DNA of 64,000 nt from Podarcis liolepis (lineage: Eukaryota), in NCBI GenBank assembly GCA_965112155.1, contig OZ218104.1. One strand, written 5' to 3'. The first letter of the stretch is position 1. Every line of letters begins with the position of its first letter. The notes below the pieces were generated by a model, which ran no database searches, was not told the DNA's origin, and worked only from the letters and a program-made list of their open reading frames with translations. Shown here in pieces: positions 23,492-51,878 of this stretch. A program made the translations under genes and the position numbers.

Positions 23492-23671
23492 GATCTAGAT
23501 AAACCTCAAGAGGGGATAAAGAAGCATCATGCTAGCATTAGCGAACTGAAGAAGAACTTTATGGAATCTGTCCCTGAGCCACGGCCAAGTGAATGGGACA
23601 AGCGCCTCTCAACTCATTCTCCCTTCAGGACCCTTAACATCAATGGACAGATCCCCACAGGAGTAGAAGGA
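23492..23671 (+). CDS. EPB41: EPB41 exon 17 (SAB): DLDKPQEGIKKHHASISELKKNFMESVPEPRPSEWDKRLSTHSPFRTLNINGQIPTGVEG
   Basis: tgatag| and GGA|gtgagt, 180 nt, phase 0-0. Confidence 0.97.
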
Positions 23672-25251
23672 GTGAGTACTTTACATAGCATGGAACTGGT
23701 GATTTGCTTGGCTTTGCTCTTAACAAAACCAGCTTTTTGTTCTCCAGGGAAGTACAGTGCAGGGTGGGGAGGTGGGTGGAATAAACCAAAGGTAATGCAA
23801 TAATATTTATATTTTTGTTATTGATTCCTGTTCTGTATATTGAGCGAGAATTGTTTTCAGATCTTAGCTGACAGTTTTTTGTCATAGCTTTCAAACCACT
23901 TTGCCTGAAGTAATTCTTTTTCAAATCTTGTGAGACTACTGCTGAAGTCAAGGGGTTGAAAAGTCATACTGTGACAACATAAGGTCTTTTTCGTTATAAC
24001 ACATTTCGTGAGCAAGACCCATGTATATATGTATGTCTCAGTCTTTTACTTTCATAAAAGGGTAACTGTTGGGCTCTCTGAATAATAATCAGCTAGTGGT
24101 TCTGTGTTACTTAGAAAAAAAGAAGTAGCTGGATTTGTTTTTGACATTACTACCAACCTTTGCAGTAAAACTGTAGTTTCAGTGGCTTGGATCCAAAGAT
24201 CTTCTTCCATGTGCAGAAAGTGACTTTCACTTGCAAAAGGACTTGCTTTGTGCTTCACGCTATTATGTTACATGAGAAAACGTCTTTCTAAATTCAGCAA
24301 CGTTCTTCTCGTACAAGAATGTATGCTGTTTCTTGCACAAACAGAAGCAGAATGAGAACCGCTATAGAACCTGCTCATTGTGGACCCCCATGCAAGCATT
24401 GTGGAACAGCAGTTATGTTCCATCGGCTCCTGGTTCTTTGGATCCAACCCAGTAACCTGAATGCAATGTTAAATAGCACTGGCTTAGATTAAATGTTTAG
24501 TTCAGTTTGAACAAATACTTCTTCTAATTTAATATTCAAGGCATCTGGCATTTTAAATATTGAGTGAACTTAGAATGTCCAGAAATTACAGTTTGGTGTT
24601 TGTTTAGTGAGGAGATGAGAGGGTATTTTTCAGCTGATTACAATTACGTTTACATTGAAAGATAAAAATATGAATGGATTGATCCTTGTTGATGATAGTG
24701 AAACAGCACACAAAACTTTAAATGTTTGGCTGGGAGTTCTGATTAAAGTAAAGTTTATGCAAGATGTTGTTGAAGCAGACGTTGCAAGTATTGCTTTTGT
24801 AAGAGCTGGATATGTGCAAATTGAATTGTTGATACATTCCCTCCTACAACAGTGGTTATTGTGACTTGAGGGCAATGTTTGAGAATGCTTATTCATTTCC
24901 CAAGTTTGTCTTCCATGAACTGTGCAAATGATCATAGAATTGTAGAGTTGGAAGTAACTCCAAGGGCCATCGAGTAAAACCTCCTGCAATTCTAGAATGT
25001 GCAGATGGCCAATATAGGGATCGAACATTAGACTGGTGGACTTTTCAAGAATTGTAATTAACAATTGTAATAAGAGGCACCTGCAGACAACTACATCTTG
25101 TCTGTAGATGTCTTATGTGGAAGGAAGGCTACCTTTTTATTGTTGCAGTAATCTTGGTAATCTGTACAGTGGGGCTGTGATACTATTATTACTATTGTTA
25201 TTATTCTACATCACAAAACAACTGAACTTTTCATACTTTGTGCATGTCCAG

Positions 25252-25302
25252 GTCAAGCAAGCCACATTTCAGTCCTATGAGAGACAGGTTGGTGGGCCAG
25301 AG
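25252..25302 (+). CDS. EPB41: EPB41 alternative exon 17A: VKQATFQSYERQVGGPE
   Basis: tgcatgtccag| and GAG|gtaaag, 51 nt, phase 0; size and the ...VGGPE end match the recalled mammalian 17A. Confidence 0.85.
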
Positions 25303-26614
25303 GTAAAGCTGCTGTTTTGATATGTGCTTCTGAAGCAGACTTTTGCTGTTGTAATGGCACTGAGCAAAACCAAAACCCTCAACAGCAGCTGCTGAGTGGC
25401 ATTTTCTTTTGGCTGCCTTTTTAAATAGTTTCATCTCTCACAGCCTCCTGTTCTAACACTTTCAAAAAGGATTTGCACTGCTGCAAGCTTTTGCAGCTTT
25501 CAGTTGCTTTTTTTCAGCGCATGGCTGATTGAAAAAGTTGCATGAATATGTTGCCATATATTTAGAGAGAGAGAGCAATTATGAAAGTTTAACTGTACCC
25601 TGTTCTTTTTATGTTGTCTTCCTCTCTTTTCCTGTTTTTCTTTAAACTCTCTTGCATTCTGTATCATTATCATTTTTTTTGCTGCCCAGCCCCCCAGCTA
25701 CTTCCTCCCTGATACCCATCACTTAGGGGTGTGCAAAGACAATGTCCCCAAATATCAGGCTGATCAAAGAAGATTGACTCAGCTGAGAGAGCTGAGAACT
25801 AATTTTTTCCTTTCCTAGATAGCTGCTTTCATTTGCCATACATAGCAAAAATAAACGTATAGAATATGTTTTGAACAGACCAAAACAAAGAAATTCCCTG
25901 TTTTCTAGCTTACACTTAGTTTTCATATACAACTGCAATATAGCTTTGTATTGTGTTATATTCTTTACACACTGGTGACACAGATGAAATCAATGTGGAG
26001 TAACTCCATTCTTTGTAATTGTAACATTAAAAAAATAATATTCCAGCTTATTGGTTTTTCAAGTGACTGAACACTTTGCACTTTAACCACAATATAATTT
26101 TGAAGTGGAACTTTTGATACTATCTTCCATGGCAATATCTTTGACAGAATTCAATTATATTTGCACTACAATTTAAGTATCAAATAATTAATGCCATTCT
26201 GAAGATCAGTGTAGCATAGGAAGTTATGACCAACGTTTTGTACAACAGTGTTTCTCTTTGTAATTCAACAAGGATATTGTTTCGCAAATATTTCTACAGT
26301 TTAATGCTGAAAGATGTATTTTAGCACATGGGTGGAGTTAACATTAAATGGGTTTCTCCACTGAAAACTATTATCAACTTAGGAATAATTTACCCACTTA
26401 GAAAGCACTTCGTATTTGTCCCTATAGTCTGGTCCCAATGTACAGGATTAGTGGATGAATGTATTGAATGCAGCAGCAGAGCACACTTTAGTTAACTTCA
26501 TGTCAATTTCTCTGACTTCTGTCCTTGCACATCCCCGAGTATCATTTTTGAGCACTTTCCACCTGTCATTTTGTTCATCTCTCTGTCTTTCTTGATCTTC
26601 TACCATGAAAGCAG

Positions 26615-26866
26615 ACACTGGAACGTCCTCTGTTAGTGCAGGATGAAGATAATAATAAAAAGCAAGAGACAGCTACTGAGGGAACTTTGCCCGAACAAAC
26701 AAATGAAGAAATCCAGGCAAAGATTTCTATTCAAATTCCTGAAGAGCAGAAATCGCTCAAAACATGCCGCCTGTACTCTAGAGCTTTTCCTTCTCCGCGC
26801 ATTCCCTTTATGATGTCTTTTTTGGTGGTCCTTGCACTGACTGTGTGGTGGCTGGTTTTTCTGTGA
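26615..26866 (+). CDS. EPB41: Putative EPB41 alternative (terminal) exon with hydrophobic C-terminal tail
   Basis: Pyrimidine tract 26565-26600, aag/cag| acceptor in phase 0, open frame TLERPLLVQDEDNNKKQETATEG...IPFMMSFLVVLALTVWWLVFL*. Confidence 0.5.
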   Translation, partial: TLERPLLVQDEDNNKKQETATEGTLPEQTNEEIQAKISIQIPEEQKSLKTCRLYSRAFPSPRIPFMMSFLVVLALTVWWLVFL

Positions 26867-29359
26867 TTTTGGAAATTGAGGGCTTCTGTGAAATATCATC
26901 AAGACTATAAAGCTCTTCAACTTGGCTGAAGCTGCCATGCCTTTTTCCATATTAACCCTTCTGTCTCTAGTTCAATCTTCCAGGGAGTCTTCTGAAACTC
27001 TTCTTTTTTTTAAAAAAAAGTGCACATGCACACACACATTTGCACCAACACTGTTCAGAATACAGTTTGGCATACTTGGAAGAGACACAGTGGATAATCC
27101 TGCAAGCTGCAATATAACAAATACGAAGGTTTTGGCAGTCCTTTTAAGCTCAAACTATGTCGGGCTTTTAACCATGAATGTAGTCAGTTATGTGTTTTTG
27201 ATTTTGGTCTTTTGAGTTCAGCAGGTTGTTGAAAGGAAAAAAAATATGATGATTTCCCTAAAAGATCTCCTCCATATCCTGCAAAACATTTGAGAATTTT
27301 TTTTAAAAAACCAAGCAGCAATTAATTTCAAGAACTGTTTTATGTTCATTGTTAAGATGATTTTATTAAAAATCCTATTCTAAGAGGGCAAGATAAGCCT
27401 ATAACTGCCGCCTGTAATTAAACAAAGCTCTTCAGAAGAATGCGGAGGTGTGTGTCTGTGTAGTAAACTGCAGAGAATTGGATTAATTCATTTAATATAA
27501 ATTGAAATGAATTTCACACCTCACTACTAAAGACTGCTGACACTTCAATCTTAAAGACGTTTGTTTTGGAATTGTGTCTTGAGTATCAGTATGACTGCAT
27601 GGAGTGAGTTAGGATGCCAGATGCTGCTTGGGTAGAAAATGAAGGGAACTTGCATCATTTTCTGCCTGAAATTGGAAGTGAGGGTGGCATATTCTTTCTC
27701 AATCTGCCTTGTGTATAAAACAATACACCAATATGCACCTATGGTTATTTATCTTGCCTGTATGACTCTTCTGTAGATGAAAAGATTGTAACTTCTGGTT
27801 TCTGTTTGTGGTGCGTTTAAGGTGGTAGAAAACCAATCATTTATTAGAAGTGATGCTTAAAAACTGTAATCTTTGCTGTTTTCCAAGTCCAGTTCTTCCT
27901 ATGTCTTTCTGTTTCTTTATCTCTTTTCTGTATCATACTTACTGAACTGTGTTTCACTTTCACTGTAACAGTTATCTGTATGGAAGTAACATGTTTATAA
28001 GTGTGTGCCATGTTTTGTGCATGTTGATGTTCATAGTGTTGATTTCAGTTAAGTTGATCTAACAGTGTAATAGGCATATGTTCAGATGGTAAAACTCTGT
28101 TTGTTTAAACCTTTGCATGTTGCTTGACTCTTAACAGCACCCAGATGTAAATGTCTGGCTAGCTATTTGATATCTACCTTCTTTATCTCATTTTTAAAGC
28201 ATAAAAACATAAAAGGTTTTGGCTAATCACTTGCGCTGACAGGTGAAGGGGTCTTTTACCCAGAGAATATGCTGAGAATTTCATAAATCATTTGAGAGCT
28301 GAGTTATGATAGTCAGCTAGGCTGAGCTACTAGAAGGAAGGCTTATGGGACAGTTGGTTTCATATATTGGGCAAGCTACTTATTAACAGATCAGATTCAA
28401 TTTGCATTCCACTGATTACACATTGTGAATATTATTTTAGATGAATAGAATATGACTTCGGAAAATCATGTTTGTGTATGTGCATATACACAGACAAATG
28501 TAAGGAAAGAAAACGCTATGTGTGTTTGTGTGTGTGTGTGTGTATGTTTGTGACAATATTGAATTACAAATTCTCCTGTAATGTATTGTGTACTCTTAGC
28601 GATGTTGATAAACATCTGTTTTCTGAAACATTGCTGGGGGGAAAGATGTTTAGCCACTGACAGATGGCTTACCCATAATAATAATGTTCAGGAATTTTGC
28701 TTGAGCCATTCTGCTAGTTAATGTAGGTCATCTTGGAATGCTCTGTAGAAAGATAGAGAGCACTTTGGTCACTTTTCAGCCATGCAATTTACCAATGCAA
28801 ATACTTCAACACTTTCATTCACTGCAATCATCTCCTGCTGAGCCCTGACTATAACACATACTGCATTATTTTTATACTTGAAAAATCTCTTGCTCCTTAT
28901 AGTTTGTTGTAGGGTGTTTTCCTCCCCTCCTATTTATCTTGGAAAATGCAGCTTGTAAGGTAGAGAACATAAATGGAAGGCTCTCTCCCATAGGAGCCAG
29001 TTCTGTAAAACAGCTTCAGAATATCTGCCTTTGTGATCTCTATCAAATTCTGTACAGAAGAATGCAAAATATTGAGGAGGGGTAAGAAGTGTAGATGCAG
29101 GAAAGAAACTGGGATTGATAGTCTTGCCATGAAACCTGGGTGCCACGAGACCTTAGTTGCAGAATTTGTGAGCAGTAAGACTTGGAAGCAGGAGTAAATG
29201 TTGAAAAGAGACCATGAAATAAACTGGTGGGAAATTTTCGTTTCCTGATTTCTCCCCCATCAATGTAACTTGATTTTTTTCTGATAGAGGAATTATCAAT
29301 TGATATCAGCCAGTAGCTGACGAATCTGGATGGATTCCTGAGTGGCCTTGGGATGCAAA

Positions 29360-38883: not shown

Positions 38884-39360
38884 AGTGCGAGTGACTCTCC
38901 CTTCAAAGAGGATCTGGATGCAATGGCAGAGGGGGGAAATATTACCTCTCACTTTGAATGGGAGGTCTCAAAGCACTCAGTGGCCCTTAGTGAGAGCCCA
39001 GTGTCAAGCCCACAGGAGTCTGCACATACTTGTGAATCTGACACTTCTTCCGCAAGCAGCAAGGAGCAGGAGAAGCAGGGTGCTGCTGCTGCTGCCGCTC
39101 TCAGTGAGAGCAAGGAAGACCTAAGGTGTGGAGAGGGATTTTACTCAGATGTGGAGAAAGAGGCTGAGGACTCAAAACAGGATGAGATGGAAGTCTATAA
39201 AATCCCTTCTTCACCTCCATTGCACCTCCACGAACAAGAGGAGGAAGCCTGTGATGTTGAAGGGGGAAAAGGGGCAAGTGAGCCACTTAGCGAGCTAAAT
39301 GGAGAATGTCACAGCTCAAGTATTGATAATGAGTTTCCTGCCCTCATTCGCTGTTTCCAG
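38884..39360 (+). CDS. EPB41: EPB41 large alternative exon (17B-like), acidic and Ser-rich: SASDSPFKEDLDAMAEGG...SSSIDNEFPALIRCFQ
   Basis: cattttag| and CAG|gtagta, 477 nt, phase 0-0, open frame (ORF 38923..39489), located just before exon 18. Confidence 0.85.
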
Positions 39361-40521: not shown

Positions 40522-40650
40522 CCACCCCTTGTGAAGACTCAGACAGTTACTATCTCTGATGTGTCGAACACGGTGAAAAGTGAAATTCCAACGAAAGAAG
40601 TTCCTATTGTCCATACAGAGACCAAGACTATAACTTATGAAGCTGCACAG
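40522..40650 (+). CDS. EPB41: EPB41 exon 18 (CTD): PPLVKTQTVTISDVSNTVKSEIPTKEVPIVHTETKTITYEAAQ
   Basis: ttgtag| and CAG|gtaggc, 129 nt. Confidence 0.97.
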
Positions 40651-41434
40651 GTAGGCTGTTTCATAATCTGGTGGTACAGTTTTATTGTAGTGTAAATAGT
40701 CTCAGTGAAAATTAGAAAATTTGATTTCAATGGGACAAGCTTACCTGAGAGGAGCTTCACAGGTTTAAATTGTTGTGAGAAATACCACTGTTGACACCAG
40801 TGCTTTCTGCACCGAACACAAACATAAATACATATCTGGGAAGTCTGATCGGGCTTGAGTTTTCAGACTTTTGTACATATATGTATGGCATCTAGGCTTT
40901 CCCTCTTTGCTGCAGAAAAGAGTGGTATAATGCTGTTTCCCCCCCTGCATCGATCACAATGAGTAGAGCTTCCCAGACTATATGAGGATTGTGCCCACTA
41001 TGCTTGCACAATAGCCACAACACTCATGGAAGGCACAAAGAAAGGGAAGAAAATGTGCGTTAATAGGGGAGGCTGCAGTGGTCAAAGACAGCTATTTGAA
41101 CCTGAACCTTTAGATTGAACTTGAACCTTTAGACCTTTACAATCTTTACATCAATTTTAAAACATATTACATTAATTCCAAAGCAAGATTGCAGCCCCAA
41201 TAAAACTTTCTAGAAGTTTTGATACTCCAACTGTCTTCTTGATTATTAACCCTTTAGGAGAAATTTAATGAGGGAGTTACTTCCTACCCAGTGGATATTG
41301 ACTTTCTGGGGAGAAGTATCAAAACTGAAAGTAGCTTGTGGCTTCTGAGCATGTAGTTTTCATCCTCATGCATTCATTATAACTTGTGTGAGCATATATA
41401 TGCCAAGTTTTGTGTCTGTTTTGCTTTCCCTATA

Positions 41435-41677
41435 CAGTCATACCTCGTGTTGCGTTAGGTTCATGTTGCATCTTTTTGGCTTGCGAACGTGGCAAACCCG
41501 GAAGTGTATACTTCCGGGTTTCGACGCATGCACAGAAGCATTCTTCGCGCTTCACACATGCGTAGAAGCGCTCTATTGTGCTCTGCACTTGCTTAGAACT
41601 GCTGCTCTAGTTGCGGACTTTTCAGGGTGCGAACAGCACCCCGGAATGGATCGTGTCCGCAACTAGAGGTACCACTG
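41435..41677. mobile_element. Tc1/mariner-type MITE with internal palindrome
   Basis: CAGTCATACCTC / GAGGTACCACTG ends with TA flanks; internal AAACCCGGAAGTGTATACTTCCGGGTTT; CpG-rich. Confidence 0.8.
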
Positions 41678-42099
41678 TATACAATACCATGTTCCCCAAA
41701 GTGAACTAGTATCAGTGTCAGAATTCACTCTGACAAGGCTTCATGTTTTCTGCAGGCCACAATGAAGTGTGTAATGCACCTCCTTGTCAGTTTTTGATGG
41801 AAGCTTTGATTTATTGCTACCCAAGGCTGTAGAGAAGATCTGAGTCCTATGACCAGCTCACTTTAACCCTGCCACCTAGGGCAGGCTAATAAGACTCAGA
41901 TTATTGTATCACTGTGGGAAAGTGTTCCAATTTGAAAAGTCCCTGAATGGGGGGGGGGGACCTACCAACTTGGACTGAGCAGTGCTGACAGGTTGATTGA
42001 GTGGTTGGTGGTGGCAGAGTTGCAGGAACTCTTAAGAGAAACCAATTTGAAAGAGTAAGTCCAGTTGGTTCAGGGCAGATTTGGGCATTTCAGCCTCTT

Positions 42100-43100
42100 T
42101 TGTTGCCCCTCGTGTATTATCTGAAAGGGAAAGTGTGGTCCGGCACATTCTTTTTGATGTTCCATATAATAGACCATCATATCCTTTGGGGGCATCTTAA
42201 TCAGTTAGGATTTGGAGGCATTGCTCTGGAGTGGTTCTTCTCCTACATGATTGGTCAGAATTGGAAGATAGCAGTGGGTGACTATTGCTCAACCCTTTGG
42301 GGATTTATATTGTGGCATAGCAAAAAGTTCCATCTGTGATCTCTTCTGTTTTTTAGTATCTATACACAGATACTTCACCCAATCATTCAACAGTTTTGGA
42401 GTATCTTAAGTATGACACCCTGCTTTACCCCCCGCCCCCCAATCGAATCCAGGAGTAGCTAAGTCTTCCCTGTTCATCTTAATGAACCAGCCTCTACTGG
42501 GTTAGAGAGTTCTTCATGAGGCTTCACTCTCCTTAGAGTAGCAAATATACAGCATAGGAATGCTACTTAACCTTGCCTTGCTCCTTGATCTCAGGTGGCA
42601 GTCATGATGAGGAACACTCTTTTTAATCATTTTGCTTGGTGAGCTGACTACACCCTTTTTTCTCTTATAAGGATTTTACTTCAGTCACCCATGCTTTGTT
42701 CCCATTTAGATTATTGCAATGTGCTTACTTATCGCTGCCTTTTGAAGTCTGGTTGGAATTCAGCTGGCACTGAATGTGGTAGCTTCCATATTAAACGAGG
42801 GAGGGCCCCAGACAGTGTAGAACTCCAGTCCTGGCTTCACAGCATGGATTACCTATTTGTTTCAGGCCAGTTCAGCATGTTGGTTCTGACTTTTAGAGCC
42901 TTCATGCTTTAGGAACTAATTTCTCTAATGTATTTCTCTAATCTCTGCATTCCACCTGCTAAAATAAGGTTAGCAACAATACAGGGTAAGGCTTTCTCAG
43001 TGGCAACATTTTCTGTATGGAATACACTTCTTCAGAAGAACTGCTTGGATCTATCCTTTTTATTTTTCTGTCTGCGTGTTAAAAAACTTTTTTCATTTTT
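42100..43100 (+). mobile_element. Decayed L2/CR1-type LINE reverse transcriptase region
   Basis: Remnant peptides IDHHILWGHL..LGFGGIALEWFFSY and LDYCN, typical of L2/CR1 ORF2. Confidence 0.7.
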
Positions 43101-44759
43101 AAATGCATTTCCCATTTAGCTGGTGAGTGTACTATGCAACATTTTTTTCCTCTTGGAGTTTCTTTAGGAGGAATGTTGGGATATGAATTTATTTATTTTT
43201 TAATTGGCCCTTTTTAGTTTTAATGCTTTTGAACTTTTGAGTGAAACATTTTGGTAGTGCCTTTTGAGTGCAAGTTGACAGAGAATTACGTTTATGACCT
43301 GGCACATGTCCAAATTCTGTTCCTAAATAGCTGGTATAGAGCTTAGCTATCCACTACATGTTTTAACATTATCTGCATTTGTAGAGGTTGATATGTTTTG
43401 AATATAGCTTCACATTATAAAAATCCCTCTCAACTTCATGTATAAGTAGGTTTTGGTCAGCTCTGGCATGGAGGTTTACTGGCTGAGTTAAAACAATTTC
43501 TGTGCTATTTTGTGCCAACCATACAAGGAATAGCCACACATTCTAGAGCTGACTCCACCTGAGAGATGCTTAAAATGTCCTCATCACATTTGAATATGTT
43601 GAAACCTTGGAAATTCTGTGATATCTGTTGGATGCTGCTTCCACCTAGTGGACACTCTGAAGGTATTGCATTTGATATTTCAGTAAGTTTCACAAACCCT
43701 TGTAAAATATTAATTAATATGTAATTCTAATGAACAAGTACATGAGCAGATATTTCACTGTGGCACAAATATGTTTAAAGGCAGACTAAGAAATAATTGG
43801 TGGCGTTCTTCCAGTCTGAGATGGCAAACCAGGGGAAACATCCGTTTGCTGAAGGAACCTGTGCATAGCTAATTTTTTCAGTCTAATCTGTCATGGTGAC
43901 CCTTGGAAGTTTTTTTATTGTTAGACTACACTTAAACACGTACACACACTATCAGGGTCATTGTTTGTAGTTAGTTTTTACTAAAGAAAAAAAAGAGCTT
44001 TCTTTTTTAGCATAGGAACAAACACCTGGGTTTTTAAAGCTTTCTTTTCCCCTTCAAAAAGAGGTAACCACCTGCCCCAACACATACTATGGCTATCCTC
44101 TTTGAGCCAAGTCTCTCCTTTTATTTCATTATGTTTGTGTGGCTATCCAGCTCCAGAAGCAGGACTGAGGCTCACGCTACCATTGTGGCAACAAGGAAGT
44201 AACTCTGAGGGTGCTACAAGTTTTGTCAAACAGCTCACTAACCAGATTCTGAGGAAACAAAGCATTGTTGTTCAGCAGGTATTAAACCTTGGTGTTGAAT
44301 TAAGATTTGGGGTTTTTTAGTTTGTTTCTGCACAGCAGCACCACTGTTGGTGCTTAGATGTTCTGACACATTAGGCACATATGAGTTTTGATGCACCTTG
44401 CTCTGCATAAGCTTTCTTGTACCTAAAAATGGTTGAAATGTTGCACTGTGCTACCAAAACATATTTTATGTAGTTATCTAGCCCTTTTTGTTGAAAGACT
44501 GGTTCACGTTGGAAATGTGACTGGAAAGTGTGCTTTCTCTGGGGAACCTTCGTATCGCATTACCTGAGGACTAAGAGAAAGGGCAAAAGAGAGTGGCAAA
44601 AACCTGGAGAAATTCTTACCTTAGCAGTTTTGTCCAGTTCCTAGCCCATGCAACATGGAAAGCATAGTATCTGAATTAGAGACCACAGCTGACAACGGAT
44701 TATATTGTTGTACCAGACATTTTGCTCCCTGACCCAGTTAGCTGAGCTAAACTCAAAAG

Positions 44760-44993
44760 TATAATGATGGGGACATTCAGGCTTATCGCTTGCTGGGGGT
44801 CTTCATGGCCAGCTGCCATGGATTTAGCTATATTTTTATGGTTCTGCTCCTACCTACAGGGTTGTTTCCAAAAAGTAGTCACGGGAGACACTGTTCAGTG
44901 CCATGGGAGCTTTCCTGTAGTGTCCTGCAGGGTTCTGTCTTATTTAAGATCTCAGTGAAGCTGCTGGGAGTTGTCATCAATATGTAGATGACA

Positions 44994-45077
<84 letters not shown>

Positions 45078-45790
45078 GAATCAAAGGAGGCAGCTGAGGT
45101 GCTAGACAAGTGTTTGTGGGGTGTGGTAGGCTGAGTGGGGGCCAACAAATTGAAAGTGAATCCTAAAAAGATAGAGAGGTGTTATGAGTTCCAAGTTCTT
45201 GAATCTAGGAGGTAGGAAAACTTCCACTTGTAGATGGGATTATACTACTAGGAGCAGGTTCATGGCTTGCAGGTCCTGCTGGATTCAACATTGTTACTGA
45301 AGGCCCGGGTGGTCTTTGCGGCTAGGAGTTCCAGCTATGTTTGCTTCACCAGCTAGGGCCCCTTTTGGATTGAGATTACTTGACTACAGTATTCTGTGCT
45401 CTGGTTGCTTCTGGATCATTGCAGTGAGTTCTACATAGGGCTGCCCGTGAAGATGACTTGGAAACTTCAGCTGGTCTAAAATGCAGCAGCCAGTTTATTC
45501 ACTGTGGTTGCCTTTGGAACTCATATAACCCCTGCTGTAAAACAGCTGCACTGGTTTCCAGTTTGTTTCTGGATTCAGTTCAGGATGCCCACACCAGTGT
45601 TTAGAGCCCTAAACACCTTAACCCCCAAATATCTGAGAGACAACCTCCTTCCCTACAGACCCTGTTGGGGGTTAAGATCTTCAGAGAGTGCCCTACTGGT
45701 AGTTCCACCATCCATGGAAGTTTGTGGGGTGACCTGAAAGAGAGCATTCTCTGTGGCAGCCCCTAAGCTGTGGAATTCCTTTCTCACAGA
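44760..45790 (+). mobile_element. Decayed L2/CR1-type LINE ORF2 3' part
   Basis: LWFCSYLQGCFQKVV, QYVDDT (YADD-like), HITPAVKQLHWFPV, RAFSVAAPKLWNS remnants. Confidence 0.8.
44996..45075. repeat. Compound microsatellite (CT)n(CA)n
   Basis: Directly visible. Confidence 0.98.
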
Positions 45791-46248
45791 GGGGTTTGGT
45801 TTGGTGAAAGGTGAAGATGCACCTCGTTGCCCTCACCTTTGACAGCTGAGACATGGATTTTCAGGATCCACCTGATTCCTGTGGTTGCATTTGGTACTGT
45901 TTTTAATACTGAATTTTAAATTCTTATGACTTGCTGGTGAATAAGTCCTCCAGACCCCACAGAAGGCGCAAAGGAGAGCGTGGAAACCCGATGCTTCTTC
46001 ACTAAGGCTTGCCATATCTAATTCATGTAGTGCTAAATTATGGTTTAATGTTTTGTGTGAAGACAACCAATAGTTGCAATCCTGTGCCACATTGATGCAG
46101 ATTTGAATAGTAACATTAAATTATTGCAAATTTACCAGCAGCCTTCTGGCTCATTACACTTTGCTGTTGTAGCCTTCTCTGCTGAACAAACAACTCTCTC
46201 TAGGTGAGCAAGGAGATAATTTATACTTGTTATGTATCTCTGCCATAG

Positions 46249-46350
46249 ACTGATGATGGCAGTGGGGATTTAGACCCTGGAGTTCTGCTAAGTGCTCAGA
46301 CCATCACTTCAGAGACCACCAGCAGCACTACCACTACTCAGATTACGAAG
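46249..46350 (+). CDS. EPB41: EPB41 exon 19 (CTD): TDDGSGDLDPGVLLSAQTITSETTSSTTTTQITK
   Basis: gccatag| and AAG|gtaaaa, 102 nt. Confidence 0.97.
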
Positions 46351-48439
46351 GTAAAATACAATAGTCTCAAGTGTGTGACCTCACTGATAAGCTATTTGCG
46401 TTGATAGGGAATGAGTTGTACAAACTCTAGTCTCTGTCTGTCTTTGGGTGACCCTTCTCTAATGGGATTGGCAATTTGTGGCACATCAGAATTTTACTGA
46501 CTGTAGGGCTCGTGTCTGCTTCCTTTTACTTGTCCTGTCAGTACTCTAGATGTGACACAGTCACCAGTGATGCTTCACTTGAAGGTTTCAATCTAGGACA
46601 AATGGTATTCAGAATACTGTTGAACAGGATTTTCCCTACCATTTTCAGCTTCTTTCCAATGGTATGGAAAGAAGCTGATGGGAACAAATCTCATTAAACA
46701 TACATAACCTACCTTTTCCCCTAACGTGGAACTCAAGGCAGCATACATACTGTCCTCAGATGGTCTATCCAGACACTGACCAGACCCACCTGGATCTTTC
46801 TAGCTTGGAGAAATGCATACTAACCCCACTTTGAACATCTTTCAACACGGACGTCTTTTCCCAAGCTAGGTACACAGGTGTTTCCAATTTGGGAGCTATT
46901 CACAGGAGGTTCCATGTTGTTAAAGTAATAAGTGGGTAGCTACCCCGAGAAGAGACCATTAGCTAACATTATCTGGGACACAGGATTCATTTGAAATAAC
47001 CAATAGAGCAAGCTCAGCACACTGTTGCTGGCAAAAGAAATGGTGTTTAGCCGTATGTGTCTAGCATATTCTCTCTGCTGGGGCTAGCCTACATTAAAGG
47101 ACCCATTATGTTTTAGAAATCAAGGTCAGAGATTGCTGAGAAACACAAATTGCCACTAGAGATTGCCAATAAGCACAGATTACTACTGACCTTTGTACAC
47201 TAGATGATAGTACTAAAACAGAAAGCCATCTCCAATACCAAGTCATTCTAAAGCACAACAAATATATTTAGATAAGGCTTCAGTCATTATGTGGTCCCCC
47301 CCCATAGAAGCTGCTTCACTTTGCTTCCATACTCCACGGTCCCTCAAGATGGCTGTAATACTGGAATGTTCATATGGTTCAACCAACCTGATTGTGTTAA
47401 CGAGCCTATATGGATTTCAGATGACTAATGTGGAAAGTGGCTTTCAAACATTGTAGCTATTAGGTGCAGTGATACCACGTGGAAATAATTCCAGATAGTC
47501 TTCACAATATGTGGCAAGCTTTACTACTTGGTGGAGATCTCTCCAGATGCATCACTTGTGAAAATGTGTGGCAGAAAAATATATATGCCACGTGTGTTGC
47601 AATACAGTTGACCCAAACGAACATGTAGTAGAGCAGCCAAATACAAGATAGTCATTATTTTTACCTCTTGTTTGCAGATGTGCTCTCCTCCAGCACCAAT
47701 GTTACTGCTACTTGTTAGAAAAGCACCAAAGTTGAGGGCATCAAAGCTGCAGTGAGCTTTTTCTTGAAGGCAGCCACCAGAAAGAATTCAAAGGCAGCTT
47801 TGTTTAAAGGAAATGTATTAGTCAAGGAAGCTAAAAGACCTCTCTGTTTTGAGGGATGATGTGACTGACAGTTCAATGGTTCCCTAATCTCAGTTATCCT
47901 CAATCCCATTAACTTGACCCTGGAAGGGAAATCCTGGTCCATGTTCCAGAAAGAATGCTTTAATGTTCATTGTCACCATCCTGTACATTACTCATTCTAG
48001 AATAGTTGCCACTCTTGCAACTTAAGTGATGTCTACAATCTTTATGAGTATGAAAGCTGGTTTCACTTAGAGAGGTATCACCACCCCACTTCTCTGACAT
48101 TATTTGCACAGAACCCTGTGGATTCAGCCTGCTCTTTCTTTGGGGCTTTACTTCTAATTAGGTTTAACTGAGTAATTGCCTCTACCTTTATACCGTTGCT
48201 CTTTGGTAGGGCAAGTTCACATATTACTTAAGGGAAGGGGCAGGAATAACATAATGAGCACCATTCTTTCCTAGGGCTTGAAAACATGTAAACCAGTAAA
48301 GTGAAAAAGGTCTTTTGTTTCAAGTTCCTTTGAGTTAATGAATAGTCTAACTTCTCTTTTCCTTGTCATTGATGTTGCCATCATTTTTCTTTATAAAGGT
48401 TTTTCTTATTTTGGCTCATCTAATCTTTCCTGCTCTCAG

Positions 48440-48569
48440 TGCAAGATCTAAGTGCTGTTCTGACCATTCATACTTGAAGATATGTGTCTAAATGGAAATT
48501 CCTCCATCTCTTTTTTGCATTCTTAGGATGTCAGCCGAGAAAAGTAATTTCTGAAACAATTTTATTTTG
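48440..48569 (+). repeat. Intronic direct repeat copy 1 (~130 bp) containing a candidate micro-exon at 48527
   Basis: Closely similar to 50091-50232. Confidence 0.9.
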
Positions 48570-48837
48570 GTCTCTTAGGGAGCCCCTCACTGGACAACCT
48601 CTCCAATAATAGGAAGATAAGCAACTGTTTGTGTAACTTAGCTTAAAAGAGAATTCCATAAACACTGTTGGATTAAAGGATGGCTTTCTCCACAGTTTAT
48701 CCTCCAAAGTACTGGATATTTATAGGTCCATGTCTTCCTCCTGAGGGGAATTTATATTTAATGTTTAGGTGTTGCATGGTTTCACTTAATAATGGAGAAG
48801 TATTCTTGTGTTAACACAGATAAAGGCATTTCAGCAT

Positions 48838-48838
48838 G

Positions 48839-48886
<48 letters not shown>

Positions 48887-48950
48887 AATAATACCCCACC
48901 TATCTGGGCAGCTTCCAACACATTTAAAAACATAATAAAACATCAACCAT
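48838..48950 (-). repeat. (TTA)n microsatellite with adjacent LINE-tail remnant
   Basis: (TTA)n followed by ATACCCCACCTATCTGGGCAGCTTCCAAC, related to 7830-7920. Confidence 0.75.
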
Positions 48951-50090
48951 TAATAGCAACAATCTGATCCAATATTAAAAAGACACAACAACTTTTAAAT
49001 TAAACAACTTATATCAAAAAAGCAATATTCAATCATCCATTGAAATCTAATAGTAAACAGTAAAATTAAGCATCAGCATATAATAAAAGTTTATGCTTAT
49101 CAATTACAATAAAGAATTACTAATCTATAATCAATAAAATAGCAAATCACAGTGCATAAAATACCACAAAACATACAAAAAGACATTAAAAGGATCAAAT
49201 TGATACACAATCTAAGGTTTTCTGGGCTCCATTTCATTTGGACTAACAGAGTGAGAAGGCGAATAAATTTGCCAGTAGGTTAGGATGATGAGATTATGAA
49301 GGAATTGTGCTGTTAAGCATTTCTGTTCATCTTCCACAGCATTCCTTCAATGACTAGGTTTGTTGCTTATACACCTTTACCTCTCTTTGTTTTTGTACCA
49401 GTTCTCCTGGTGTATAAGAAGTGTGTGTTTGAATCTAAGAGTTTTCTGCTAGCATGAATTTGGTTGAAAGTGGAACTGTGACTTTCAGTCAAGTAGATAA
49501 AGTTTATTTTTAAAAAGGACTAAAGACGCATCTCAATTGTCCAGTGGATTTTTTAAAGTATCATTTTTAATACAAGTACTTGTATTTACAAGCACTGTCT
49601 TAAGGCGAATTCCCCTCTTCTTTCTCAATCAGGAATTGATGCTTCCTGTAACATTATCTAAAAGAAAGATTGCAGAATCTAAAAACAAAATATGTTTTTA
49701 AAACATGTTTTTTCATAAAAACTGTTGCTTTTATTCATATGTATGTGTAGTTAAACAACTAAAACACAATGAATCCACTATGATTTCTCTAATTGGGTGG
49801 TAGTCCGAGTAGAAAGACAAATGTTAGCAGGACTGTTTCAGATATTACTTTCCCCCCATGTAGATGTGACCATTCATCTTATCAGACCATAGGACAAAAA
49901 CTTTTTCTCTACTTGCTCTTTCTTTTTTTGTACTTGCTCTTTGTCTTTCCTCTCCCTCTATTTCTCTTAATGTGGAACTAGCTTTTTATGCAAAAACTGA
50001 ATAGGGAAAGGAGGAAACAAAGATGTATATCTTTATAATGAGTAGGTCAGTTATTAAGTGGACACACAAACTTTGTGTCTGATAAAGGTC

Positions 50091-50232
50091 TGCAAGATCT
50101 AAGTGCGGTTCTAACTATTCATACATTGAAGATACGTGTCTATATGGAAATTCATCCATTTCTTTTTCTTTCTTTTTTTGCATTGTTAGGATGTCAGCAG
50201 AGAAAAGTAATTTCTGAAACAATTTTATTTTG
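50091..50232 (+). repeat. Intronic direct repeat copy 2 containing a candidate micro-exon at 50190
   Basis: Closely similar to 48440-48569, with a longer pyrimidine tract. Confidence 0.9.
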
Positions 50233-50527
50233 ATGTCCTTTATGTATTCTTACGTGTGCTGTAGTCTGCTTTTCTTAGGAGCCAGTATAGTCCTGAATGT
50301 TAGCTTTGAATCAAAGGAGTCTAGCCCAGGCTAGAGTGGAATCTAACATGTCTCCATTTCAGATCCCTGTTTTGAAAAAAAGGAGATAGTGTCCCTGAGA
50401 GCTTGGTCACTATTGTGGGTTTGAACAAGCTAAGAATTGTGTAAAACGCAGCTACCATTGGGAGCCATATAAGCACAACAAACCTGTGATAGCAGTTATC
50501 ACACACTCCATTCACATTTCTCACTAT

Positions 50528-50931
50528 GGCCTGATTCATATGTCTTGCTAAGCTAAATCATGGCTTAGCATAAGCATGTGGACTTCTGGGAAGGAAATTG
50601 CAGCTTCTTTGCTCCTTCTCAGCCATTCTGCTGCTGTGCTGAGTTGAGCCGAGCGACAGCTTGGTATAGAGTATCATTGGAAATTGGGATTGTGGTTTAT
50701 GTCTCTTCAAACTAAGCATGAGCTGTAACCAAAGCTTGTCCTATTGCTTATGGCTCATGGTTTGCCTGGAAGAGTTAAGCCACGAGCCAGGGTTCAGATG
50801 ACACTAAACCAAACCATGGCTTAGCTCAGCACAGTTCATCAGCAGAATGACCAGGAAGGAGTGAAACAACTGCAGTCTCTTCTCCAGGAGCCCCTGTTCT
50901 CTTATGTTCACCATGATGTGCAAACCAGGCC
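50528..50931. mobile_element. ~400-bp fold-back (palindromic) non-autonomous DNA element
   Basis: GGCCTG...CAGGCC ends; arm 50590-50650 is reverse-complementary to 50815-50890. Confidence 0.6.
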
Positions 50932-51156
50932 TGTGACAGCAGTAGGAAAATCATTTGCATATCTATTAAGCTTACAGTCATAGGAATTTGGTTGTCAAAG
51001 AGTGATATGCATCTAATCTAGATCTAATTATGAACCATTCCTGCTGACTTGACCTTTTGGTTGCTCTGATTGATTAACTAGGCTTGTTTTTCTCTTTAAA
51101 ACTATTTTTTTAACATTTTGGCATTGTTGCATTGTAAGCTGTTTGTTCTCTCGTAG

Positions 51157-51237
51157 ACTGTGAAAGGTGGAATTTCAGAAACACGAATTGAAAAAAGAAT
51201 TGTCATCACAGGAGATGCAGACATTGATCATGATCAA
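51157..51237 (+). CDS. EPB41: EPB41 exon 20 (CTD): [27 protein letters not shown]
   Basis: tcgtag| and CAA|gtaaga, 81 nt. Confidence 0.97.
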
Positions 51238-51782
51238 GTAAGACTTTTAGTGTAGTGACTATTCTGAGTATGTGCACATTGTTTCTGGCACTTTTATCAA
51301 TGGAGCAGTTGGCAGATCAAATATAAGATATATTGCATGACCTTTGGGGTCTCCAGAGGGATTTGAAAGTTCACCCATGATAAGATTCTAGCCAGATTCT
51401 GAACTCTGCCAACCTTTAGTGCATAGCTTTCATTCTATACTGAAGAGACACTGCATTACCCTGGCCTTTGACATCTGAAATACATTTTTAAGACCTTCCC
51501 TATTTTTTTTTGTATTGTAAACTGTTTTAACTGGTTTAAATATCATATTTTTATATTGAAAGCTGCCCTGTGACCTTGCGGTGGATCAGAAAAAGAACCC
51601 AATAAATAAGCCACAACCTTGTTGCCCTAAATTGATCCAAAAATGTTTTCCCTAATGATAGGTTGCAAACCTTCATTACTATATGGAAAGTAGTTGGTAA
51701 AGTTAGATCGTGATAGGAAGCAAAATGTTGTTGCCCTAAACTTGATTCAAGATAGTTTGTTCTTTATGCCATCTTTCTTCAG

Positions 51783-51878
51783 GTTCTGGTACAGGCCATC
51801 AGAGAAGCAAAGGAGCAACACCCAGACATGTCTGTGACCAAGGTGGTTGTCCACCAGGAGACTGAGATTGCAGAATAA
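51783..51878 (+). CDS. EPB41: EPB41 exon 21, last coding part: VLVQAIREAKEQHPDMSVTKVVVHQETEIAE* (exon continues to donor at 51907)
   Basis: cttcag|, TAA at 51876-51878, CAG|gtagtt donor after 51907. Confidence 0.96.
   Translation, partial: VLVQAIREAKEQHPDMSVTKVVVHQETEIAE

Follow-up and report, generated by a model that had tools for sequence, protein, structure and literature searches.

Positions 26615–26866 of the window form a conserved coding stretch of EPB41, the gene for protein 4.1R. In database models this stretch serves as an alternative last exon, and it probably yields a tail-anchored 4.1R, with the ER as its most likely first destination. The window is the whole stretch of DNA that was analysed (64,000 nucleotides), and it was identified as EPB41 of a Podarcis lizard by mapping a RefSeq protein onto it; all features described here lie on its + strand. 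We call the stretch the TM exon and the protein that ends in it the TM isoform. The encoded peptide is 100% identical to the C-terminal end (residues 745–827) of the RefSeq protein XP_053254549.1, annotated as 'protein 4.1 isoform X26' of Podarcis raffonei. Mapped to the window, this protein gave an EPB41 exon chain in which the FERM and FA regions and exons 13–16 are followed by exon 17 (23492–23671, the second half of the SAB domain), exon 17A (25252–25302, 51 nt) and the TM exon. Exon 17A, the usual partner of the TM exon, has an internal donor after 25287 that produces a 36-nt form, 17A'. A Pfam scan of isoform X26 found FERM_N, FERM_M, FERM_C, FA and SAB, all above their cut-offs and all encoded upstream in EPB41, and found no 4.1 CTD. 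The CTD exons 18–21 (40522–51878, by protein mapping) sit downstream, and their span is dropped by the TM isoform. Also skipped is an exon 17B-like exon at 38884–39360, whose splice acceptor is present. It shares 29% identity with the 17B of a bat cluster (P0136; pairwise E 6e-05 for the insert), so that its conservation is much lower than that of the TM exon.

The TM exon opens behind a pyrimidine tract and a tandem AAG/CAG acceptor (26585–26614), whose main site lies after 26614 and whose alternative site, after 26611, adds one Gln. Its 83 codons (26615–26863) run to a TGA at 26864–26866, so that the tract, the acceptor and the open frame described in the sequence-only reading of this DNA are all present. 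Three parts can be distinguished. Residues 1–35 (26615–26719) form an acidic, weakly constrained linker with an internal acceptor before 26642; residues 36–62 (26720–26800) form a conserved, net basic juxtamembrane part with a K[IV]SI-x-[IM]PEE motif and Cys51 (26765–26767); and residues 63–83 (26801–26863) form a predicted transmembrane tail-anchor helix that runs to the stop. The earlier reading had quoted an acidic part, a basic part and 21 uncharged terminal residues. The latter stand, but the quotation had skipped 11 residues between the first two parts, AKISIQIPEEQ, and this segment contains the best-conserved motif outside the helix.

Of 257 matches in a pattern search of metagenome contigs, one proved to be a genuine relative. 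This contig, L002, belongs to a metagenome collection; it comes from a vertebrate, bird-like host and contains part of EPB41. L002 keeps the order exon 17, exon 17A, a second conserved alternative last exon (25690–25818 in the lizard, hereafter the FFLS exon) and TM exon. The TM exon itself is identical at 204 of 252 positions (81%), and the aligned block ends at its stop codon: beyond it, identity falls to 222/443, near background (46% in a shuffled control). Upstream, the final 90 nt of the intron match at 83 of 93 aligned positions, and the AAGCAG acceptor to 26614 and the in-frame upstream join are conserved in L002 and in the spliced models. The coding frame is the only one open throughout, the other reading frames of the TM exon containing 3–8 stops. 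Compared with L002, dN/dS was 0.68 in the linker, 0.25 over residues 36–83 and 0.21 in the helix, all three values coming from one sequence pair with few changes (5.0 synonymous and 4.0 non-synonymous in the helix) and no significance test. Purifying selection on the TM exon is shown directly, as are its sequence, its conservation and its use in spliced models. The dS of the TM exon was 0.42, against saturation in exon 17, so that constraint at the RNA level also contributes to the conservation.

Such a low dS, together with a highly conserved flanking intron, is typical of regulatory exons, and could indicate an unproductive 'poison' exon, where splicing continues past the stop, the transcript is lost to nonsense-mediated decay and the peptide is incidental. 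The nearby poly(A) hexamers, which are only weak, would also fit this explanation: the candidate signals in the window are two ATTAAA matches at 27365 and 27417 (27365–27422), and L002 has an AATAAA about 500 nt past its stop, at a distance similar to that of the lizard ATTAAA in a weakly alignable stretch. However, from fish to human the 83 codons remain open and end at a fixed stop. Substitutions in the tail are hydrophobic only, the helix dN/dS is low, and conservation ends at the stop codon with no conserved donor beyond it. A poison exon is thus improbable, and we consider the TM exon almost certainly a real coding last exon.

The species range of the tail was examined in protein databases. 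A protein search with the tail gave 101 scored matches among 133 candidates. In this match set, which was selected for carrying the TM tail, all 89 named full-length proteins terminate exactly at the helix; going by their names, they represent 4 species of lizard, 9 of turtle, 46 of bird and 10 of mammal. The other 12 matches are unnamed Logan ORFs from unspliced genomic sequence, and in 11 of them a W stands directly past the tail, as would result if a TGA in that position had been translated as Trp. A tenth turtle and further mammals, including primates, were added later. The human TM-tailed model (TrEMBL A0A2R8Y7N0, 565 aa) combines an 80-kDa-type start with FERM, FA, exon 17, 17A and the TM tail. 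Profile searches extended the range to the frogs Staurois and Anomaloglossus, to models of the pipefish Vanacampus and Festucalex that end at the helix, and to unnamed fish-like ORFs. A bonefish model places the tail segment directly ahead of the 4.1 CTD, and predicted joins are odd in two of the three named fish models, one of them P0157. From lizard to mammal the TM exon is about 70% identical. The database models come from automated annotation, in part by projection of one onto another, and are not independent witnesses of expression; the distribution of the sequence nevertheless indicates that the TM exon likely dates to the bony-vertebrate ancestor. Conservation of helix and stop, which had been proposed as a check in reptiles and birds, was confirmed and reaches further, from bony fish to human. 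Likewise, the proposal that a splice choice would give a FERM- and SAB-containing 4.1R with a C-terminal anchor and no CTD agrees with spliced models from teleosts to human, the anchor being predicted. Among the matches listed, TM-tailed models of rodents came from squirrel, ground squirrel and porcupine, but none from mouse or rat; this could be due to clustering or to a real loss.

The last 21 residues of the TM exon, IPFMMSFLVVLALTVWWLVFL, are uncharged, with a best 19-residue Kyte-Doolittle mean of 2.45. Of the 109 + strand frames in the window that stay open for at least 60 codons, 4 end in a 19-residue stretch with a mean of 2.0 or more, and 1 of 133 frames does so on the - strand. Because long + strand frames end in this way at such a rate, chance could account for a hydrophobic tail taken by itself, and the evidence for the TM exon is its conservation across species, not its hydrophobicity by itself. 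The earlier reading had warned that read-through into a T-rich intron can mimic a hydrophobic helix. The frame counts lend that idea its one argument, but all of the cross-species evidence stands against it: with frame, stop and acceptor conserved, chance read-through was rejected and its probability is negligible. Within isoform X26, the most hydrophobic window is the terminal one, whereas isoforms without the tail peak at a Kyte-Doolittle value of 1.3; the N-terminus is acidic, and hydropathy gives no signal peptide or other transmembrane segment.

The predicted helix was then compared between proteins. In database models it is 19–21 residues long and is directly followed by the stop. In a set of 131 proteins with the tail pattern at their end, chosen by their last five residues, none of the 39 distinct last-19 stretches contains D, E, K, R, H, N, Q or P, and 129 have a Cys about 12 residues ahead of the helix. 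The juxtamembrane part carries a net charge of +1 to +5 in the 12 proteins checked, and across the 12 rows of an alignment from fish-like to mammal sequences S38 is invariant and E43 nearly so. AlphaFold, run with a 12-row alignment, returned one confident helix at residues 62–82 (block pLDDT 83–97) and a disordered linker (pLDDT about 44–57); the program models no membrane. The tail has a TM-tendency sum of 26.8, which we take to be high and in the TRC40-type range. The Pfam scan assigned no family to the tail or to the FFLS exon, and a PDB search with the tail returned a single match (E 0.85), which was disregarded, and no solved relative.

A translated tail need not span a bilayer. It could act as a degradation signal, as a monotopic or lipid-droplet anchor, or, ending in V-F-L, as a PDZ-type ligand; the helix has no residues following it, and hydrophobic C-termini can serve as degrons. 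These functions are improbable here, to about the same degree as a poison exon, for 19–21 uncharged residues with a basic patch ahead and a Trp near the far end have been kept across bony vertebrates, and a degron or PDZ ligand needs no such length and order. According to these predictions, the TM-tailed 4.1R would very probably be inserted in a membrane.

Another use of the exon would be as a short in-frame cassette leading to 17B or exon 18, with the TM form as a minor by-product. The GC donor noted in the sequence-only reading, CAG/GCAAAG after 26716, exists, but the 102-nt cassette derived from it is unsupported: in L002 the donor is AAG/GTTTCT, 6 nt beyond the GC site, where the lizard has AAG/ATTTCT (26717–26730). 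GC donors usually need a G at +5, which GCAAAG lacks. As a main route the GC donor was rejected, being weak and not the orthologous donor. A cassette spliced from the GT site is represented by the L002 donor itself and by the porcupine model P0138, in which the first 36 TM exon residues are joined to 17B and the CTD. Nevertheless, the GT is missing in the lizard, and Ile replaces Val at the donor codon in 7 of 110 TM-ending models, namely all 5 lizard models and those of a softshell turtle and a sparrow; from this pattern of replacements, the GT donor and with it the cassette option were likely lost more than once. The part of the exon beyond the donor is, moreover, more constrained than the part before it (dN/dS 0.25 against 0.68). 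That the cassette is the main use is very unlikely, slightly more so than either a poison exon or a non-spanning tail, and the reading we prefer is that of a last exon encoding a membrane anchor.

We then considered how the ends of 4.1R are chosen. Among 137 exon-17-bearing proteins, a sample biased by the tail query, 103 have the TM tail at their end, 19 terminate in FFLS, 13 carry the CTD and 2 run into intron 17. The TM exon had been thought compatible with joins to exons 17 and 17A; 17A or 17A' precedes it in 102 of the 103 TM-ending models, so that exon 17 is not its usual direct partner. The tandem acceptor, with its extra residue, is used in 11 of these 103 models and the internal acceptor before 26642 in 14, and we infer that this variety, like that of 17A and 17A', comes from RNA junctions. 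The FFLS exon has 42 codons, ends in RELRTNFFLS before its stop and contains no transmembrane segment; its dN/dS against L002 (4052–4180 of that contig) is 0.15, the mammal version ends in RELRAKFFLS, and the 19 proteins with this ending include those of great apes. By eye, the end of the FFLS exon resembles the ISELKKNFM helix of exon 17. A further possible end is given by read-through of the exon 17 donor (23672–23803), beginning VSTLHSMEL in the lizard. An ending VSTLSSDQL, followed by a stop, was seen in two bat proteins, P0130 and P0134; P0134 is a spliced ORF from a short contig of Logan.

The intron after 17A (25303–25690) is strongly conserved in L002 and contains two GCATG words about 220–240 nt downstream, as well as several YGCY words. 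Judged by these features, it is likely a splicing control region for the choice of tail. Exons 17a/a' are muscle-enriched. They are described as tissue-specific in the accessible part of PMC2148212, and UGCAUG is over-represented downstream of exons enriched in muscle and brain, for the most part no further than 200 nt away, according to the portion available of PMC1950531.

These elements can be combined into a proposed isoform. Exon 17 would be spliced to 17A (or 17A') and then to the TM exon, with cleavage in the intron that follows. The product would run headpiece-FERM-FA-SAB-linker-basic patch-TM, without exon 17B and CTD exons 18–21. Its FERM and spectrin-actin-binding parts would remain cytosolic, held to the bilayer by their own anchor and no longer via the tails of band 3 or glycophorin. 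Lost would be the CTD partner NuMA, bound by exons 20–21 of 4.1R (PMC2148212, as far as accessible), and, according to the sequence-only reading, ZO-2 binding as well. Because the helix is very hydrophobic and no residues lie past it, we infer post-translational insertion via the TRC40/GET route, with entry at the ER; tails of higher hydrophobicity are handled by TRC40 and those of lower hydrophobicity by EMC (PMC5788257, in part). Since the helix is short and carries bulky WW/F residues in its outer half, the protein would be expected to reside in the ER/SR, the nuclear envelope or the Golgi and not in the plasma membrane, whose helices are longer and have smaller outer-half residues than Golgi ones (part of PMC2928124). 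An early secretory or nuclear-envelope location is somewhat favoured on these grounds. Cys51 may be palmitoylated. Regulation of muscle or brain type might be linked to 17A, and a bias of the TM isoform towards muscle, heart and brain is a tentative suggestion. Still more speculative, and rather unlikely to hold in full, is an ancient three-way switch after 17A between CTD, FFLS and TM anchor, in which the TM form would be integral in the ER/sarcoplasmic reticulum or nuclear envelope of 17A-positive tissues (muscle, heart, brain) and tie spectrin-actin and FERM-bound channels to an internal membrane. If so, a membrane-tether role of 4.1R, invisible to anti-CTD antibodies, would have been missed for decades.

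Protein searches of the lizard's own genome found the tail at the EPB41 locus only, and a profile scan of 4.1G-like (C3, near 60432400) and 4.1B-like (C8, near 47584200) loci, covering 30 kb from the SAB exon onward, found no homologue of the tail in the introns from SAB to the first CTD exon; the comparison comprised these two paralogues. The three best other paralogue profile matches were rejected as CTD pieces brought into the profile by P0157. In the literature, the list of all known 4.1R exons in PMC2148212 contains no such terminal exon in its accessible part, nor do the available sections of a 2024 review (PMC10887211) mention 17A, 17B or a terminal exon. PMC8408529, PMC2014790, PMC4696171 and PMC12946277 hold nothing relevant to a TM isoform in the portions available. 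No publication describing such an isoform of 4.1R was found in the open literature, a coverage that excludes the main 4.1R splicing papers (Huang JBC, Baklouti 1997, Parra 2004) and supplements. XP_053254549.1, A0A2R8Y7N0 and many more database models share the exon and its stop and are named only 'protein 4.1 isoform'. Provisionally, we regard the TM isoform as real, ancient, already present in automated annotations including human, and seemingly unstudied.

Textbooks present protein 4.1R as a peripheral link from membrane proteins to spectrin-actin. A form with its own anchor would alter how knockouts are interpreted, and likewise the protein's non-erythroid roles in heart ion handling, in muscle and at the nuclear envelope. 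The TM exon is more conserved than the published exon 17B (about 70% against 29% identity), and the isoform that it ends would be missed by CTD-directed antibodies and by exon 17–18 primers.

Canonical 4.1R, with its tissue-specific exons 14, 15, 17a/a' and 17b, comes from the same gene and has the same FERM, FA and SAB domains; it ends in the CTD, whereas the TM isoform ends in a predicted transmembrane helix. A second comparison is with group b of Baines, presumably FRMD3/4.1O and FRMD5. In the part available of Baines 2006 (PMC1459144), this group comprises FERM and FA proteins with a C-terminal signal-anchor and is set apart from the true 4.1 proteins. The TM isoform resembles them, as they are described there, in its cytosolic FERM-FA head, its C-terminal transmembrane segment (predicted here) and its lack of a signal peptide. 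However, group b proteins are encoded by separate genes, two in vertebrates and one in invertebrates according to the same pages, whereas the TM isoform is a 4.1 splice form that keeps SAB. None of them was found among the tail matches, which gave no evidence of homology between the tails; with SAB and CTD exons at its locus, the TM isoform is built like group b and is not a member of it. With tail-anchored proteins that use the TRC40/GET or EMC route, as far as described in the accessible part of PMC5788257, it shares an arrangement in which most of the protein precedes one hydrophobic helix at the very C-terminus, insertion by such a route being predicted here.
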